64,000 nucleotides of DNA, from contig NZ_QRAP01000005.1 of the NCBI RefSeq assembly GCF_003363015.1, positions 330,820-394,819 on the forward strand, given 5' to 3'. Positions within the stretch are counted from its first letter, which is position 1, and every line of letters starts with the position of its first letter. The notes beneath the pieces were generated by a model. That model was not told where the DNA came from, did not search any database, and saw only the letters and a program-made list of their open reading frames with translations. Both the position numbers and the translations under genes were made by a program. Shown in pieces: positions 48,628 through 61,774 of the stretch. Origin of the DNA: Enterobacillus tribolii. Its GTDB lineage: Bacteria > Pseudomonadota > Gammaproteobacteria > Enterobacterales > Enterobacteriaceae.

Positions 48628-49191
48628 CTACTCTTCCGTCAGTTCGTCGTACAGGCCACGCAGGCGGGTGCGCAGGTAGAGCACGGCTTTGTGCTTACGT
48701 GACAGCAGCGCCTGCACGCTGGCGCCGGATTCTTCCGCCAGCGCCTTAAAGCTGTAGCCATGCAGCTCGGTCTTTTCGAAAACGTCACGCTGCGCCGCCG
48801 GCAGCTCCGCCAGCGCTTCGTCCAGCTCTTCCCAGATCAGCGCGCTCAGGTACTCTTCCTCCGGCGTTTGCGGCACGCCAAACAGGGTTTCAGCCAGCTC
48901 GTTTTCCGGCGCATCTTCTTCGTCGCCATCTTCGTCATAATAGACGGGCAGCGGCAGCTCGCGCTTTTTCCGCGCCCGATCGGTGATCTCATTGCGCGCG
49001 GCGCGGAACAGCCAGGCGGCGACGTTCTCCACCGGCTGTTCAATCTTCATGAGTTGATAGGTGACTTCCTGCAGGATATCGTCCGCATCATCACGCACCG
49101 CCGTGCGGCCACGGATAAAGGCTTTCAGCCGCGACCGGCAGGCGTTAAGGGCGGACATCACCAGGGAATCGCCTTCCTTACCGACCTTCAT
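48628..49191 (-). CDS. ECF-family RNA polymerase sigma factor
   Basis: Sigma-70 region 2 (DADDILQEVTYQLMK) and region 4 HTH (FKALAEESGASVQALLSRKHKAVLYLR). The ATG at 49191 lies 6 nt after the stop of the upstream His-rich gene. Confidence 0.7.
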   Translation of the reverse strand: MKVGKEGDSLVMSALNACRSRLKAFIRGRTAVRDDADDILQEVTYQLMKIEQPVENVAAWLFRAARNEITDRARKKRELPLPVYYDEDGDEEDAPENELAETLFGVPQTPEEEYLSALIWEELDEALAELPAAQRDVFEKTELHGYSFKALAEESGASVQALLSRKHKAVLYLRTRLRGLYDELTEE

Positions 49192-49196
49192 TACGC

Positions 49197-49688
49197 TCAC
49201 TCTGCTTCCGGCGTTTTCTGTTCGCCGTTTTCCGGCTGACGGCAGCATTCCCGTTCATTCCGCGGGCCGCGACGACCGTCGTGCTCAGGGCGCCCGCAAT
49301 GGCCATGATGACCGTGATGACCGTGATGACCGTGCCGTCCGAATCCGTCGCGCCGCTGGCGGATAAATTCTTCGCGCTCTTCCGGCGTCATGTTCATCCA
49401 GCGCGCATGCATCCGCCGGCGGTCACGCGCCATGCCGAACATGCCCGGACGCATTCCCAGCCCGCCGAACAGAATGCGGCACAGGATCAGCAAACCCAAC
49501 GCCTGCCAGAAACCAATGCTGCTCACGCCGAACAAGGCGGGCAACAACGCATTCCACAGCGACATGACCAACAGGCCCAGCACGACAAACAACACCGCGC
49601 CGATCGCCAGCGGTTTAACCATCGGATGACCGCCGAAGCCATCGTGACCGCGGCCATGACCATGACCGCGCATACCAAATTCTCTCAT
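49197..49688 (-). CDS. His-rich two-TM membrane protein (candidate metal-sensing anti-sigma/regulatory partner of the ECF sigma)
   Basis: ~163 aa from ATG 49688 (AGGAGAG RBS). N-terminal GHGHGRGHDGFGGH, two hydrophobic helices, and a C-terminal GHHGHHGHHGHCG plus CC pair. Translationally coupled to the ECF sigma. Confidence 0.5.
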   Translation of the reverse strand: MREFGMRGHGHGRGHDGFGGHPMVKPLAIGAVLFVVLGLLVMSLWNALLPALFGVSSIGFWQALGLLILCRILFGGLGMRPGMFGMARDRRRMHARWMNMTPEEREEFIRQRRDGFGRHGHHGHHGHHGHCGRPEHDGRRGPRNERECCRQPENGEQKTPEAE

Positions 49689-49927
49689 TTTTTCTCTCCT
49701 CATAGCATAAGCTGATTACGCTTTCTGATGAGGTAGACGAATGAGCGACGGAAATATTGCCGGAAAAATAGAAAATTTTTAGTCGCCGGGGAAATTACGT
49801 CAGGAAACGTGCTCCGCCACTGATATTACGGACGGGGGGAAGCGCGATTAAAAAGCAGGGAGTAATGATAACACGCATGAAAAAGATGGGCGAAATACCC
49901 TCATTCCGCCCACCTCAATAAACCACC

Positions 49928-50662
49928 TTACGCCGTCAACCCGCCATCCAGCACCAGCGTTTGCCCGGTCATATACCGGCTGTCATCGCCGATCAGAAAC
50001 GCCGTTGCGCGCGCCACTTCCAGCGGGGTGCCGAGCCGTTTCAGCGGAACCTGTTTGCGCATCGCCTCCAGCTTGGCTGGCGGCATGGCTTCGGTCATCT
50101 CACTTTCGATGATGCCCGGCGCCAGGCAGTTAACGCGCAGGCCGAAACGGCCCAGCTCCGGCGCCAGCGAACGGCACAGGCCGATCATCGCCGCCTTGGT
50201 CGCGCCGTATGCAGTCTGCCCGATGTTACCCTTGATGCCGGTGACCGAAGACATCAGCACCAGCGCGCCGTCGCCGTTCATGATCATCGCCGGCAGCAGG
50301 TGCCGGTTCCAGTAAAACACCGCGTTCAGGTTGGTATTGATAACCTGTTGCCAGGTTTCCGCCGTTTGGTGGATGTGCAGGCCGTCCTGCGTAATGCCGG
50401 CGTTGTGGATCACGGCATGCGGCGCGCCGTGTTTTTCCAGCAGTTGCTGCGCCAACACATTAACCTGCTCTTCATTGCTGCCGTCGCACGGGTAAGCCTC
50501 TACCCATCCCGGCAGGCCGGCACAGGCGTCAACGACCGCCTGGCTGGCTTCACCGGTGTTACGGCAGGTGAACACCACGTTCCAGTCACGCGCCAGCTCT
50601 TCCACCAGCGCGCGACCGATCCCCCGGCTACCGCCGGTAATCAGCAGCCATTTTCTGTTCAT
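49928..50662 (-). CDS. SDR-family 3-oxoacyl-ACP reductase (FabG-like)
   Basis: ~245 aa from MNRKWLLITGGSRGIGRAL (TGxxxGIG Rossmann motif). Catalytic Y..K (YGATKAA) and S (SSVTG). Confidence 0.75.
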   Translation of the reverse strand: MNRKWLLITGGSRGIGRALVEELARDWNVVFTCRNTGEASQAVVDACAGLPGWVEAYPCDGSNEEQVNVLAQQLLEKHGAPHAVIHNAGITQDGLHIHQTAETWQQVINTNLNAVFYWNRHLLPAMIMNGDGALVLMSSVTGIKGNIGQTAYGATKAAMIGLCRSLAPELGRFGLRVNCLAPGIIESEMTEAMPPAKLEAMRKQVPLKRLGTPLEVARATAFLIGDDSRYMTGQTLVLDGGLTA

Positions 50663-50919
50663 GGCGCTGACTTCTGCTGTTGATCCGCCAGATGCTGGCA
50701 CAGTTCGCCCAGCGTCATTTCCGGGTTCTTGGTAAACATTTCCGCGTCGATGGTGACGCTGAACTCACGCTTGGCCAATACCATCAGTTCAACGTAGTCC
50801 AGGCTGTCGAGCTTCAGCTGGTGGAGAGGCATTTCTGCAGAAAGCTCATCCATCTCCATATCTTTAGCATCGCAGATCATTTCGCAGACTTTTTCATATA
50901 CGGTTTCATACTGGCTCAT
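50659..50919 (-). CDS. acyl carrier protein
   Basis: 86 aa with a phosphopantetheine attachment site (LKLDSLDYVEL, DSL motif). Confidence 0.75.
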   Translation of the reverse strand: MSQYETVYEKVCEMICDAKDMEMDELSAEMPLHQLKLDSLDYVELMVLAKREFSVTIDAEMFTKNPEMTLGELCQHLADQQQKSAP

Positions 50920-60683: not shown

Positions 60684-61364
60684 TTACTTCTCCAGTGACT
60701 TATCGTGTTGCAACAGCGACAGCAACTGATCGGCAAACGCCGGATATTTACGGTCCTGCAGGGCAACCCATTTCTTATTAACGATGAAGCTCGGCGTAGC
60801 TTTAATGTCGTAGTACGCGGAAACGTCCGCCATATACTTCAGCAGATCCTTGGCTTCCTGGGATTCGCTGGCTTTGTTATAGGCATCAACGTCGATACCG
60901 ATTTTCTTCAGCCAGAGCTCACGGGTGGTGGCATCGCTGATATCCAGCTTGTCTTTGATCACCGCGTCGTAGGCTTTATCGCGATATTGCTTTTCAATCC
61001 CCATCACCGACAGCGTGGCGAATATGCCGCTGTAGCGCGACAGACCGCTGCTGGAGCGGTTGAGGTGCAGGTAAACAATTTTGGTCCCTTGCGGCATACG
61101 GGCGCTGAGATCGTTAATATGCGGCTCATTCAGCGCACAGTAATGGCAACCGTAAGAGAAGAATTCAATGATAGTATTTGCTTCTTTAATTGGGCTTTCA
61201 TCAACCTTGCTCTGGCTAACCTGAATAAGGTCCTGATGAGGTTCAATATTCTCAGCCTTGCTACCCAATACGAAATTATTACTGATATAGGTAGTTGTAA
61301 TTACCGCAGATATTACGGCAACCACAATGGTATAAAGTAAAATAACAAGCGACTTTTTGAACAT
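60684..61364 (-). CDS. membrane-anchored DsbA-like thiol:disulfide oxidoreductase (bacteriocin accessory thioredoxin, PedC-like role)
   Basis: 226 aa with an N-terminal TM helix and a thioredoxin-fold CxxC active site (FFSYGCHYCALNE). AT-rich codon usage. Confidence 0.7.
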   Translation of the reverse strand: MFKKSLVILLYTIVVAVISAVITTTYISNNFVLGSKAENIEPHQDLIQVSQSKVDESPIKEANTIIEFFSYGCHYCALNEPHINDLSARMPQGTKIVYLHLNRSSSGLSRYSGIFATLSVMGIEKQYRDKAYDAVIKDKLDISDATTRELWLKKIGIDVDAYNKASESQEAKDLLKYMADVSAYYDIKATPSFIVNKKWVALQDRKYPAFADQLLSLLQHDKSLEK

Positions 61365-61489
61365 AAGAACTCACGTCCTTTATAGGAGGGATACAGATAA
61401 AACAGGTGCACGCAAAGGCCGAACCGGACTCAGGTCTGCAGGTAAGCGATAATCCTTATCGAAACCCGGTACAACGTTTAAAGACAGAG

Positions 61490-61528
61490 TAGGCAGATAC
61501 AAAGCAAGCGTCCGTATCTGCCTACCGA
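61490..61528 (-). terminator. intrinsic terminator/attenuator downstream of the precursor-peptide gene
   Basis: Perfect 12-bp inverted repeat GTAGGCAGATAC-(14 nt)-GTATCTGCCTAC, followed on the minus strand by TCTGTCTTT. Confidence 0.5.
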
Positions 61529-61579
61529 ACTGCTACGACTTACGCCGGAAAGCTTACGCCCCCCGGCGAAAAGACGTTA

Positions 61580-61774
61580 TCAGCCCAGGTTGCAATCAGC
61601 CAGAGTTGCTGATTTAACGGTCTGAGTTTCAACGCCGTGCTTGTCAACGCAAGTAGTCAGTTCAACACAGGTCAGTTTGCCGCCAACCGGAGTAGCTGCT
61701 ACGAACTCAGAAGTACAAACGTCTTCACAACCGCCAACAACCTGCATAGCTTCGATCATGTTGATCTTTTTCAT
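61580..61774 (-). CDS. double-glycine-leader precursor peptide with 6-Cys core (bacteriocin/RiPP-like)
   Basis: 64 aa. Leader MKKINMIEAMQVVGG fits the M..L..EL..V.GG consensus cleaved by C39 transporters. 49-aa core CEDVCTSEFVAATPVGGKLTCVELTTCVDKHGVETQTVKSATLADCNLG. Strong RBS AAGGATATTGTA-ATG. Followed by a hairpin terminator. Confidence 0.7.
   Translation of the reverse strand: MKKINMIEAMQVVGGCEDVCTSEFVAATPVGGKLTCVELTTCVDKHGVETQTVKSATLADCNLG

Follow-up and report, generated by a model that had tools for sequence, protein, structure and literature searches.

Gene content of the conserved unit

The window, a stretch of 64,000 nt from Enterobacillus tribolii, carries thirteen minus-strand ORFs which an earlier note had read as a single operon making and exporting a fatty-acylated, disulfide-rich peptide. 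All thirteen were recovered at the same coordinates, and their family assignments were upheld by Pfam/NCBIfam profile matches, motifs and folds. Eleven of them (49928-61774) form a conserved unit, in the order peptide, DsbA-like protein, acyltransferase (AT), C39 exporter (PCAT), MacA, MacB, NodT, KAS, MaoC, ACP and FabG. The junctions, described as overlaps or gaps of 0-20 nt, are mostly of that kind (overlaps or 0-22 nt) but 215 nt follow the peptide gene. The other two ORFs, encoding an ECF sigma factor and a His-rich membrane protein by profile assignment (48628-49703), had been counted as members; they lie outside the unit, with a 224 nt gap before the His-rich gene, and do not accompany the cluster in other genomes. 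The ORF list and the profile search revealed no glycosyltransferase or other enzyme for an alternative acceptor within the cluster, and no immunity gene is present in it.

The PCAT (57551..59710) combines C39 peptidase (Peptidase_C39, 6e-24), transmembrane (ABC_membrane) and nucleotide-binding (ABC_tran) domains, and also matches NCBIfam NHLM_micro_ABC1 (1e-81); its C39 domain has the catalytic Cys17 and His90 and the motifs QGETNECGLAC and HYVV. The periplasmic adaptor, or membrane fusion protein (MFP; 56372..57538), is of the MacA type, since it scores 1.5e-86 against NCBIfam MacA NF008606 versus 1.4e-17 against HlyD type I. It is followed by a MacB-type ABC transporter (54411..56369; NF007826 2.4e-220, Pfam MacB_PCD 2.4e-35, FtsX), made of an N-terminal ATPase, a MacB periplasmic core and an FtsX permease, and by a NodT-family outer-membrane factor (OMF; 53008..54408; TIGR01845 3.9e-76, Pfam OEP 4e-46), a lipoprotein with an LTGC lipobox. 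The DsbA-like thiol:disulfide oxidoreductase (60684..61364; Pfam DSBA 7.5e-12, NCBIfam DsbA 6e-12) has a hydrophobic N-terminal anchor, a CHYC active site (residues 73-76) and a Thr-Pro loop; it is missing from variant architectures and is thus an accessory component.

Among the fatty-acid genes, the FabF-like elongating KAS (51756..53015; TIGR03150 2.5e-112, under the equivalog cutoff) was assigned with the help of its ACATG (Cys169), HGTST (His309) and GHLIAA (His346) motifs, and no gene of the cluster is better conserved (65-83% identity across variants). The double-hotdog MaoC-type (R)-specific dehydratase (50938..51759; Pfam MaoC_dehydratas 4.6e-7) shows, in the family alignment, an invariant SGDxNPIH (Asp19, His24) in its N-terminal half and an invariant VxQTH in its C-terminal half; absent from the Serratia marcescens group and from Pandoraea, it is also accessory. 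The dedicated ACP (50659..50919; Pfam PP-binding 9.7e-10), with its phosphopantetheine Ser39 in DSLD, was found in every architecture for which DNA was available. The last gene of the unit, as judged from homologous loci, encodes a FabG-like 3-oxoacyl-ACP reductase of the SDR type (49928..50662; TIGR01830 3.1e-69, adh_short_C2 7.8e-56) with TGGSRGIG and Y165-x3-K169 motifs. Its ORF is open up to a GTG at 50701, where the start had previously been placed; the ATG at 50662 is most likely the true start, given its ATGA overlap with the ACP stop codon and the MSRKW or MNRKW beginning of the orthologues. Some lineages do without MaoC, FabG or DsbA, which leaves the kind of acyl chain uncertain.

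The AT (316 aa; 59733..60683) is barely detected by its Pfam profile, Lip_A_acyltrans (E 6.7e-5, 22.7 bits for a cutoff of 22.3). Alignment to that family with hhalign covered just the C-terminus (69% probability), and a sequence search of the PDB gave no match. Its AF2 model (pLDDT 78) displays the PatA/LpxM fold, matching PatA 5oce (Foldseek 4.6e-9) and LpxM 5knk (2.9e-8) with a probability of 1.0. Two motifs are invariant, P-x-H140-x-x-S-D144 and FPDITPD (215-221). The His/Asp motif sits where LpxM has HX4D, but its spacing is HX3D instead of the canonical HX4D, which counts against acylation of the peptide. With 77 representatives among 1.84 billion, the AT family forms a small group of its own, separate from the bulk of LpxL/LpxM, and in every architecture the AT gene lies immediately upstream of the PCAT gene.

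The precursor peptide and its flanking stem-loops

The peptide gene (61580..61774) encodes 64 residues matching Pfam DUF4762 (39.9 bits for a cutoff of 27; 3.9e-10), i.e. a 15-residue double-glycine leader, MKKINMIEAMQVVGG, and a 49-residue core. The core had been credited with six cysteines; it has five (C16, C20, C36, C42 and C61), of which only four are conserved. Invariant in both alignments of the family are G14, G15, C20, C36, C42, K45, G47 and C61; the core also has an invariant D44-K45-x-G47. In the AF2 model (pLDDT 73), which had no fold match in the PDB, a leader helix is followed by a three-stranded sheet, and DKxG occupies the turn joining strands 2 and 3. Lys45, because it is invariant and placed in this turn, is the best candidate for an acylation site; the presence of D/N-K-x-G in the unrelated peptides of plasmid pE41 and Mangrovibacter was also counted in its favour. 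The alternative is the new N-terminus. The residue following the GG site is variable, however, so that there is no N-terminal signature, another point against acylation; and D-K-x-G could instead have a purely structural role as a beta-turn.

Two stem-loops flank the peptide gene. The hairpin that had been noticed downstream is real: it has 16 pairs and a weak T-tract, and lies directly 3' of the gene (61526-61488, minus strand). Homologous loci have a comparable one there, in 95 distinct intergenic regions (median z of -3.9, median best dG of -21 kcal/mol), its structure being kept and its sequence not. It is likely an attenuator or a stabiliser setting a high peptide-to-enzyme ratio. On the 5' side, a stem-loop (UUGGUCGCC...GGUGGCCAA, 61820..61844, minus strand) lies about 45-70 nt upstream of the start codon; the region 61775-61860 folds at -21.1 kcal/mol (z of -2.9). 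Hairpins of differing sequence occupy the equivalent position in six of seven other lineages folded, and sequence conservation in the leader is limited to the AAGGA ribosome-binding site. This element could act either as a hairpin that stabilises the mRNA or as a palindromic operator.

Distribution and co-variation of the genes

More than 130 related loci were fetched from many genera of Enterobacterales, from plasmids of E. coli, Salmonella and Serratia, and from one Pandoraea; their taxa are Yersiniaceae, Erwiniaceae, Enterobacteriaceae, Morganellaceae, Budviciaceae-like and one Burkholderiales genome. Many of the hosts are gut- and plant-associated enterobacteria, and the cluster resides on chromosomes as well as on plasmid segments flanked by IS or Tn elements. 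Chaperone-usher fimbrial operons adjoin it in most lineages. The arrangement is far beyond chance. Genes in the E. tribolii order are found again at 73 loci in genomes and at about 60 in metagenomes.

The peptide, AT, PCAT, MacAB-OMF, KAS and ACP genes are kept together whichever of three orders they take, and with peptides of at least three unrelated families. The Pandoraea locus has all of them, with a GG-peptide, and the set is retained around unrelated two-cysteine cores in Kosakonia, Mangrovibacter and the S. marcescens plasmid pE41. Peptides overlooked by tblastn were found by ORF scan. In the AT-first variant, the peptide gene is 3' of FabG in the sole locus sequenced past FabG (L118), and we infer the same position for five AT-first genome loci. 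Proposed on the basis of one sequence, the association of peptide, exporter and lipid genes was borne out from both ends: starting from the AT, every sufficiently flanked locus has a GG-leader peptide and a C39 exporter; starting from the peptide (62 protein clusters, Enterobacterales only), three of three additional contexts, followed to the edge of the fetched DNA, hold the genes from peptide through KAS plus the start of the next one (MaoC-type/ACP). Between peptide families, identity drops to 27-29% for AT and PCAT, versus 40-44% for MFP, MacB and OMF, 53-55% for FabG and 65% for KAS.

A proposed pathway and its alternatives

The most likely meaning of these data is that the cluster produces a fat-tagged peptide and displays it, by a previously undescribed route. 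Slightly better than even (about 0.55) is our estimate for the following scheme, in which the private ACP donates an acyl chain to the peptide, possibly on Lys45; the C39 transporter then cleaves the product and moves it to the periplasm, where it is oxidised before leaving through MacAB-NodT. The peptide would be overexpressed relative to the enzymes, owing to its flanking stem-loops and strong ribosome-binding site. The KAS would condense a fatty-acyl primer from the cellular pool with malonyl-ACP, the product being carried by the private ACP, and the FabG-like and MaoC enzymes, where present, would convert it to a 3-hydroxy- or 2-enoyl-acyl-ACP; since the cluster encodes no enoyl reductase, thioesterase, FabD, FabH or PPTase, housekeeping enzymes would supply the remainder. 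The AT, at the cytoplasmic face of the inner membrane and beside the C39 transporter, would then transfer the chain to the peptide, which means that the transporter would have to pass an acylated cargo. Cleavage after Gly15 would deliver the core to the periplasmic side, where the membrane-anchored DsbA-like protein (or the housekeeping DsbA where it is missing) would form two disulfides from the four invariant cysteines; a periplasmic DsbA together with conserved cysteines implies such a periplasmic intermediate, hence a two-step export, for which the MacA-type adaptor and the MacAB-TolC and Aat examples described in PMC7943197 also speak. Finally, MacB would extract the lipopeptide from the periplasmic leaflet and hand it to MacA and NodT, towards the cell surface or the medium. 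The product might be a surface amphiphile acting with the neighbouring fimbriae, or an antimicrobial. As for the lipidated RiPP-like product of the earlier note, the co-inheritance on which it depends survives changes of gene order and of peptide family; lipidation itself is what we infer from the genomic association.

The cluster may instead yield two separate, cooperating products, an option we hold to be unlikely: KAS, ACP and AT would make a lipid or an acylated small molecule leaving through MacAB-NodT, while the C39 transporter would export the peptide unmodified, for DsbA to oxidise; the two products would act jointly outside, e.g. as surfactant or lipid carrier plus peptide. To our knowledge, the characterised LpxL/LpxM/PatA enzymes all O-acylate lipids or glycolipids, never peptides, which speaks for this option and against peptide acylation. 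Two ABC transporters could mean two cargoes; MacB-type pumps elsewhere export non-protein lipids, as matches to the NCBIfam heterocyst DevA/DevB models also suggest; and one high-GC organism (L161) has the KAS-MaoC-ACP trio, AT and C39 being absent from the 6 kb available. Against it, the cluster encodes no enzyme for a non-peptide acceptor, the AT adjoins the C39 transporter rather than the MacB or fatty-acid genes in all three gene orders, and AT and PCAT diverge jointly upon a change of peptide family. Moreover, a periplasmic DsbA would be purposeless if the C39 transporter, adaptor and OMF were a one-step channel, so MacAB would still be required for the peptide.

The GG leader, the C39 transporter and a cysteine-containing core requiring DsbA, as in several microcins, do fit a class II microcin-like bacteriocin. 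The AT and fatty-acid enzymes would then remodel lipid A or envelope lipids of the producer for self-protection, with MacAB-NodT as an immunity pump: with no separate immunity gene, another gene would have to protect the producer, and the AT shares the fold family of the lipid A late acyltransferases. We find this improbable, because the private KAS and ACP are retained even in the minimal Pandoraea cluster, a costly outlay for an immunity lipid, the AT family stays apart from true LpxL/LpxM, the core, where toxins often diversify, is fairly well conserved and has positions that are invariant across genera, and the neighbours to which the cluster is linked are GerE regulators and fimbrial operons instead of toxin/immunity cassettes. 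The bacteriocin framing of the earlier note is therefore doubtful: the GG leader and C39 exporter are there, but the lack of an immunity gene, a MacA-type instead of a CvaA-type adaptor and the fimbrial linkage do not suit it, and the evidence points to an Aat/CexE-like surface-displayed lipopeptide at least as much. As to a chance or syntenic juxtaposition of efflux pump, fatty-acid operon and peptide exporter with no common function, every module does have free-standing bacterial relatives; the same set in more than 130 loci, on chromosomes and plasmids, in three permuted orders and with tight or overlapping junctions effectively refutes it.

Relation to known systems

A literature search gave no paper on the cluster and no characterised Gram-negative bacteriocin or RiPP with such an enzyme set, in agreement with what had been noted. 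The cluster comes closest to the Aat/CexE lipoprotein secretion system and to the GNAT-dependent lipidated RiPPs. Aat/Cex (AatPABCD, with dispersin Aap or CexE) of enteroaggregative and enterotoxigenic E. coli is a MacB/Lol-like exporter of an acylated protein (PMC7943197). There, as predicted here, a dedicated acyltransferase lipidates a small secreted protein, which a MacB/LolCDE-like transporter, a MacA-like adaptor and a TolC-like channel bring from the periplasmic side to the surface. The Aat/Cex genes accompany fimbrial virulence loci, and the cluster adjoins fimbrial operons in most lineages. However, AatD is a periplasmic Lnt-like C-N hydrolase, its donor is probably a phospholipid and its substrate an N-terminal Gly that signal peptidase I uncovers once the protein has passed through Sec, whereas the cluster has a PatA/LpxM-fold AT, a predicted private acyl-ACP donor supplied by a private KAS, a C39-cut GG leader and its own DsbA.

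The lipidated RiPPs (selidamides, lipolanthines, goadvionins and lipoavitides; PMC8784127, PMC13647313) likewise start from a ribosomal precursor with a leader, with a GG-type cleavage site in selidamides, and are fatty-acylated at Lys/Orn side chains or the N-terminus. Their listed acyltransferases are all GNAT, none having the lipid-A-type fold of the AT, and no report places one of these systems in Enterobacterales alongside a second export step by MacAB-OMF or a DsbA of its own; the cluster, for its part, encodes no macrocyclase, lanthionine synthetase or other core-modifying enzyme. Some lipidated RiPP pathways, those of the goadvionins and lipolanthines, bring FAS/PKS genes of their own. 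Special acyl chains are also built on a private ACP by a private KAS, with optional dehydratase or reductase, in the rhizobial AcpXL/LpxXL (very-long-chain lipid A) and NodF/NodE/NodA systems, where a dedicated acyltransferase (LpxXL being of the LpxL fold family) serves a specific acceptor. The cluster resembles them in these respects, but their acceptors are lipid A or a chito-oligosaccharide, and they involve no ribosomal peptide, C39 transporter or MacAB pump.

We know of no lipidated member among the 15 known microcins. Microcins are few, only 15 being counted in a review (PMC10233263). Class II microcin export (CvaB/CvaA/TolC) shares with the cluster a 15-residue GG leader whose periodicity is helical and hydrophobic, an ABC transporter whose C39 domain is active and a cysteine-containing core requiring disulfides; it differs by its CvaA/HlyD-type adaptor, where the cluster has a MacA-type one plus a second ABC transporter, MacB, as well as fatty-acid and acyltransferase genes, and no immunity gene. 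Lastly, the periplasmic heat-stable enterotoxin, exported by MacAB-TolC (as cited in PMC7943197), is also a small disulfide peptide that DsbA oxidises in the periplasm before a tripartite pump of the MacB type expels it; it is Sec-delivered, not lipidated, and uses a housekeeping pump, whereas the cluster encodes its own MacB paralogue.

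Gene content of the cluster

The gene set described in the earlier note was borne out with minor corrections: open reading frames lie on the minus strand throughout the region it had indicated, and the peptide, to which six cysteines had been attributed, has five. The cluster comprises 11 minus-strand genes. The first encodes the 64-aa peptide (61580-61774), which shows 100% identity to a database protein of Enterobacillus tribolii, the source of the region. It is followed by genes for a DsbA-like protein with a CHYC active site (60684-61364), a 316-aa acyltransferase with a marginal Lip_A_acyltrans match (59733-60683), an ABC transporter with a C39 peptidase domain (57551-59710), a MacA-type adaptor (56372-57538), MacB (54411-56369), an outer-membrane lipoprotein of the NodT family (OMF; 53008-54408), a FabF-like synthase (KAS; 51756-53015), a double-hotdog MaoC dehydratase (50938-51759), an ACP (50659-50919) and a FabG-like reductase (open frame 49928-50701). 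The dehydratase and the reductase were both assigned by family matches, and the start of the latter is most likely the ATG at 50662, to judge from the matching start of its orthologues. The genes are separated by 0-22 nt or overlap, except for a 215-nt spacer 3' of the peptide gene. After a 224-nt gap downstream of the FabG-like gene come, still on the minus strand, the genes for a His-rich two-helix membrane protein without family match (49197-49703) and for an ECF sigma factor (48628-49248).

The C39 domain (Peptidase_C39, 6e-24) is catalytically competent by its motifs, with Cys17 within QGETNECGLAC and His90 within HYVV. The next three proteins form a MacAB-TolC-type tripartite set (MacB: NF007826, 2.4e-220, MacB_PCD, 2.4e-35, and FtsX, 3e-19; OMF: NodT, 3.9e-76), the adaptor being of the MacA and not of the CvaA/HlyD type (1.5e-86 for MacA versus 1.4e-17 for HlyD). 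All the motifs of a type II FAS-like module are present: the Cys/His/His triad of the KAS (ACATG/HGTST/GHL), the DSLD of the ACP, the YGATK and TGGSRGIG of the SDR and, in the MaoC dehydratase, SGDYNPIH with the invariant Asp19 and His24 (hydratase-2 Asp/His). Among the cluster ORFs there is no enoyl reductase, FabD, FabH, thioesterase or PPTase, and domain searches revealed no GNAT domain in any of them. No ORF, for an immunity protein or otherwise, lies between the peptide and DsbA genes, where the intergenic regions are of 63-270 nt and bear hairpins. An Rfam scan of positions 48000-64000 gave no match. An aryl-polyene or flexirubin reading, prompted by a FlxB-like match of the SDR, was rejected: there is a single KAS, and there are no CLF, LolA-like, glycosyltransferase or ammonia-lyase genes.

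Conservation of the cluster in Enterobacterales

The combination of a double-glycine (GG) peptide with an acyltransferase and KAS/ACP genes, singled out in the earlier note, recurs in 73 genome loci and about 60 metagenome loci. The former came from a scan starting from the acyltransferase, with one genome per species, and belong to Serratia, Yersinia, Rahnella, Pantoea, Ewingella, Citrobacter, Enterobacter, Trabulsiella, Providencia, Pluralibacter and other genera. As detected by tblastn with the window proteins, the order is, in almost all of the 73, peptide-DsbA-acyltransferase-C39 transporter-adaptor-MacB-OMF-KAS-MaoC-ACP-FabG; MaoC and FabG are missing from the S. marcescens group. The metagenome loci, obtained by a scan centred on the dehydratase, have the same content and extend over about 9 kb of downstream DNA. 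A search from the peptide side, with a profile of 31 peptides, returned 62 protein clusters, all from Enterobacterales. In Salmonella Choleraesuis, S. marcescens and Enterobacteriaceae bacterium 4M9, the context runs from the peptide through the KAS and into the gene that follows (MaoC-type or ACP), where the fetched DNA ends.

Loci apparently devoid of the peptide, and so breaking its association with the acyltransferase, have three explanations. Serratia peptides with GTG starts or divergent sequences were missed by tblastn and recovered by an ORF scan. In the variant typified by Rahnella inusitata, the acyltransferase gene comes first; in the one such locus whose sequence extends beyond FabG (L118), the peptide gene is found 3' of FabG and there is no DsbA gene, and we infer the same placement for five similar genome loci, in which the fetched DNA ends at FabG. 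Finally, in the copy carried by the E. coli plasmid pMTY9812_IncF (L080), an IS3 element has displaced the peptide gene, now 2.7 kb downstream on the other strand. The whole cluster is duplicated in some genomes, each copy having its own peptide (L010/L016 and L011/L023 in Serratia fonticola, L037/L051 in Rahnella laticis), and four clusters have two tandem peptide genes (L054, L057, L063 and L164).

The operon had originally been drawn from 48628 to 61774. Its 49928-61774 part is conserved as a unit; the sigma factor and His-rich protein genes were discarded as cluster members, homologues being found neither within about 9 kb downstream of FabG in the roughly 60 metagenome loci, nor at the E. 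coli plasmid copy, nor at a Pluralibacter-like locus, where FabG is followed by a tRNA-like sequence, a TetR gene, dsbD and cutA. These two genes (48628-49703) adjoin the cluster only in E. tribolii. The His-rich protein has the tails HGHGRGH... and HGHHGHHGHHGH, and the two products may constitute a metal-responsive sigma/anti-sigma pair, with the unusual order of membrane protein gene first.

The peptide family

The DUF4762 match (PF15959) covers residues 1-61 of the peptide, with 39.9 bits for a gathering threshold of 27, and most of the 62 related protein clusters bear the same precomputed Pfam match. The leader, MKKINMIEAMQVVGG, conforms to the double-glycine pattern, with V at -4, A at -7, E at -8, I at -12 and M at -15. 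Its consensus is MKKxNxxEAxxIVGG, the two glycines, G14 and G15, being invariant in alignments of 31 and of 44 homologues. The other invariant positions are C20, C36, C42, K45, G47 and C61, D44 being invariant or nearly so; the additional Cys close to the new N-terminus (C16 in the window peptide) is lineage-specific. Lipidation of an N-terminal Cys, of the lipobox or Hedgehog-like kind, was considered because the core of the window peptide starts with Cys. It was downgraded since the +1 residue varies: it is mostly Thr, and otherwise C, G, H, I, V, N, K or R.

In the predicted structure (pLDDT 73), a helical leader precedes a three-stranded sheet, of which strands 2 and 3 are joined by a D-K-x-G turn; searching solved structures with this model gave nothing significant. 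DKDG or NKDG is also present in the unrelated peptide cores of the S. marcescens plasmid pE41 and of Mangrovibacter, and GKNG in that of Kosakonia. Because such a D/N-K-x-G-like motif recurs in unrelated cores, the turn lysine is the best candidate for side-chain acylation. The role of the turn may instead be purely structural.

The peptide gene is bordered by hairpins. The 215-nt spacer contains a 16-pair stem-loop, and a stem-loop occupies the same 3' position in 95 distinct homologous spacers. A second hairpin is usually found 5' of the ribosome-binding site of the peptide gene (61820-61844 in the window); in most lineages a hairpin or palindrome lies 25-70 nt 5' of the start codon (window, L001, L054, L058, L060, L061, L162). 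These 5' elements differ in sequence and have comparable stems, with z values of -2.3 to -4.2 in seven of the eight regions folded. No conserved promoter or operator sequence was found 5' of the peptide gene, only the ribosome-binding site being conserved in sequence. Both stem-loops are kept as structures, not as sequences, which suits a separately stabilized and abundant peptide transcript.

A divergent acyltransferase of the PatA/LpxM fold

The Pfam score of the acyltransferase was barely above threshold (22.7 versus 22.3 bits for Lip_A_acyltrans). Its profile matched no PDB sequence, and hhalign aligned only the C-terminal 55 columns with LpxM. An AlphaFold (AF2) model built from 14 homologues (pLDDT 78) was, on the other hand, matched by Foldseek with a probability of 1.0 to mycobacterial PatA (5oce, 4.6e-9) and Acinetobacter LpxM (5knk, 2.9e-8), with E-values from 5e-9 to 1e-7; the next, unrelated match was at 0.026. 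It is the fold comparison alone that points to this kinship, the sequence evidence being weak. Two motifs, P-x-H-x-x-S-D (His140 and Asp144 in full-length numbering) and F-P-D-x-x-P-[DE], are found in all homologues, including those only 26% identical. When aligned with an LpxM whose gene is from an E. coli plasmid, His140/Asp144 falls on H-A-W-G-V-D (HX4D) with one residue less, i.e. HX3D. On the basis of the model, the protein is placed in the PatA/LpxM fold family, as a member whose putative catalytic motif departs from the canonical one; the acyl donor and the acceptor are predictions.

The database contains 148 relatives of the acyltransferase, all from Enterobacterales. Only 77 were retrieved when 1.84 billion representative proteins were searched exhaustively with a profile; the family is therefore a small one and stays separate from the very large family of LpxL and LpxM. 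Members of this small family commonly bear the name 'ABC transporter' in NCBI and UniRef entries (the annotations of L080 and of a second plasmid copy, L165, included), which appears to be an annotation error propagated from the neighbouring gene.

Divergent architectures and mobility

The divergent members of the acyltransferase family (26-31% identity) sit in rearranged clusters. On pE41, and in Kosakonia and Mangrovibacter, the order is peptide-MacA-MacB-OMF-KAS-MaoC-ACP-FabG-acyltransferase-C39 transporter; in Pandoraea (Burkholderiales), where the cluster adjoins an integrase gene and a Tn3 transposase gene, it is peptide-ACP-KAS-acyltransferase-C39 transporter-MacA-MacB-OMF. Two further metagenome contigs have the acyltransferase gene followed by that of the C39 transporter. 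The small ORFs of these clusters all have GG leaders, and their cores, usually with two Cys, are unrelated to DUF4762. Judging from gene content, the invariant core across all variants is made up of the GG-peptide, the acyltransferase, the C39 transporter, MacA/MacB/OMF, the KAS and the ACP, and the DsbA, MaoC and FabG proteins are accessories.

Whatever the architecture, the acyltransferase gene immediately precedes that of the C39 transporter, the other blocks being those that shift. Where the peptide family has changed, these two proteins are only 27-29% identical to those of the window, against 40-44% for the pump proteins, 65% for the KAS and 53-55% for FabG; in the E. coli plasmid copy L080, which is equally distant and has kept a DUF4762 peptide, they are 41-43% identical. 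The acyltransferase therefore diverges along with the peptide, just like the protease-exporter that serves this peptide.

Several copies are in mobile settings, namely the IncF plasmids of poultry and swine E. coli and of Salmonella, and the Tn3/integrase-flanked Pandoraea copy. IncF-type plasmids with the cluster were found in nine of 5426 complete E. coli genomes and also in Salmonella (L080, L165 on plasmid p1, plasmid matches H12-H13). The hosts given for the E. coli plasmid copies are mostly poultry or swine, with one human. The plasmid copies are flanked, and partly rearranged, by IS3, IS66 and IS1 elements, and two E. coli chromosomes keep only a 2-kb KAS-ACP-SDR remnant. In a high-GC organism, a 6-kb contig (L161, 2091-5335) carries a KAS-MaoC-ACP trio (57%, 30% and 32% identical to that of the window) that adjoins serS and a tRNA and is followed by a 298-aa protein of no known family; neither acyltransferase nor C39 transporter is present on the contig. 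The lipid sub-module therefore occurs in other contexts too.

Proposed pathway and alternatives

That the genes of the cluster are functionally linked is strongly supported by these comparisons, and a chance juxtaposition of modules is essentially excluded. We favour, with a probability of about 0.55, a pathway in which the peptide would be acylated from the private ACP, exported by the C39 transporter, oxidized, and expelled by MacAB-NodT. The KAS would load a chain onto the ACP by condensation, and FabG and MaoC, where present, would bring the product to the 3-hydroxy or 2-enoyl stage. At the cytoplasmic face, the acyltransferase, positioned beside the C39 transporter, would pass the chain to the peptide. 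The transporter would then cut off the leader and hand the core to the periplasmic leaflet, where the DsbA-like protein could close two disulfides. MacB, acting in the manner of LolCDE or AatPC, would extract the product and send it out through MacA and NodT. A requirement for folding in the periplasm would account both for the second ABC pump and for the avoidance of the one-step type I route.

The catalytic motifs of the cluster enzymes are intact, and the cluster includes no enzyme that would produce a different acceptor; the peptide lacks a Sec signal, has conserved Cys pairs and comes with an oxidoreductase of the periplasm. The cluster might nevertheless yield two separate products, a lipid and a peptide, which we consider unlikely. 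Still less probable is it that the lipid genes serve immunity or the remodelling of the envelope. The acyltransferases form a discrete family, always clustered with the C39 transporter and the peptide, which argues for an acceptor other than lipid A or a glycolipid. Private ACP and KAS proteins that feed a dedicated transferase are known from the rhizobial AcpXL/LpxXL and NodFE/NodA systems, LpxXL being of the LpxL family, and the favoured pathway, with acylation of the peptide, would resemble them in this respect.

Relation to known systems and possible role

By analogy, the closest functional counterpart of the cluster is the Aat/Cex system, in which a small protein is lipidated by an acyltransferase and then displayed at the surface by a tripartite machine resembling MacB/Lol (PMC7943197). 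Both systems co-encode a MacB/Lol-like ABC transporter, a MacA-like adaptor, a TolC-like channel, an acyltransferase and a substrate. They differ in the enzyme, AatD being a periplasmic Lnt-like protein (C-N hydrolase) and that of the cluster of the PatA/LpxM fold, and in the substrate, which is Sec-dependent with an N-terminal Gly in Aat (PMC7943197) and has a GG leader and a variable +1 residue here. Lipidated RiPPs are already known, such as the selidamides (PMC8784127); lipolanthines, goadvionins and lipoavitides are also listed, and every acyltransferase named there is a GNAT (PMC13647313), unlike that of the cluster. No description of the cluster or of DUF4762 was found in the full-text literature searched, outside which most subscription journals lie. 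Ribosomal lipopeptides and lipoprotein secretion are thus known; the enzymology and the transport logic would be new.

The bacteriocin or microcin framing of the earlier note is now doubtful. The cluster does share with class II microcins the leader type and the C39 transporter; it lacks their immunity gene and CvaA-type adaptor, its own being of the MacA type. In most lineages a chaperone-usher fimbrial operon and one or two genes for GerE/LuxR-type regulators are found within 10 kb of the cluster, co-oriented with it and on either side. The fimbrial operons are upstream of the peptide in Yersinia, the Citrobacter/Enterobacter/Salmonella group, Providencia and Pluralibacter (L001-L004, L017-L031, L054-L079, L162, L164), and downstream of FabG in loci most like those of Serratia, Rahnella, Pantoea and Ewingella (L084-L125, L155); fimbrial genes also adjoin one divergent, IS-degraded copy (L170). 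The ushers are of several types (29-74% mutual identity). In the Salmonella/Citrobacter group, about 95 nt separate the end of the GerE gene from the peptide gene. Because these neighbours recall the aggregative fimbriae with dispersin and Aat, and because an immunity gene is missing, we speculate that a surface-active or adhesion-modulating role is at least as plausible as a bacteriocin one.

Taken as a whole, and tentatively, since we rate it somewhat short of an even chance, the cluster would define an unrecognized, widespread and mobile class of ribosomal lipopeptides: a lipid-A-type acyltransferase would attach a chain made by the private KAS/ACP to the peptide, probably on the Lys of the D-K-x-G turn, and a C39-DsbA-MacAB-OMF relay would deliver a dispersin-like product, not a classical bacteriocin, acting at the surface with the adjacent chaperone-usher fimbriae. 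If so, it would be a second, mechanistically independent Gram-negative route to a lipidated, surface-displayed small protein besides Aat/AatD, and a new enzymatic route to ribosomal lipopeptides, every described one that we found using a GNAT. With a peptide as its acceptor, a lipid-A-type acyltransferase would extend the substrate range known for its family and offer a genetically encoded lipidation tool working in relatives of E. coli. The presence of the C39 transporter and MacB in one operon suggests a division between an inner-membrane step with leader removal and a step from periplasm to outside. DUF4762 is offered a working function, and the 'ABC transporter' label of the acyltransferase is corrected. 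The cluster occurs in tractable hosts (Serratia marcescens, Yersinia, Citrobacter, Pantoea ananatis, Rahnella, and plasmids of farm-animal E. coli and Salmonella), so that its chemistry and its roles in adhesion, colonization and competition are directly testable.

Other features around the cluster

Upstream of the peptide gene, on the minus strand and running off the end of the window (62607-64000), is the gene for a FkpA-like FKBP peptidyl-prolyl isomerase with a very long N-terminal coiled coil made of Q/E/K-rich repeats of about 35 residues. The protein has 1429 aa in the near-identical contig L024 (2670-6959) and 618-884 aa in relatives from Pluralibacter; in an unrelated variant of the cluster (L169), a PpiC-type rotamase is encoded upstream of the acyltransferase. 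L024 (JBEBPQ010000053.1), labelled as an Advenella kashmirensis MAG, shares upstream synteny with the window and 99-100% protein identity for the peptide, DsbA and the acyltransferase; it is probably from a relative of Enterobacillus and mis-binned. Positions 40001-42000 form a low-GC segment (0.41 versus about 0.59 for the window), possibly a recent insertion; a 330-aa ORF without Pfam match (40262-41254, minus strand) lies there between two MFS transporter genes. On the plus strand, an operon at 43690-48625 encodes an HlyD-type adaptor, a fused double-ATPase/ABC-2 permease (913 aa) and an ABC-2 permease (YhiI/YbhF-like); it is unrelated to the cluster and, converging on the 3' end of the sigma factor gene, marks the downstream border.
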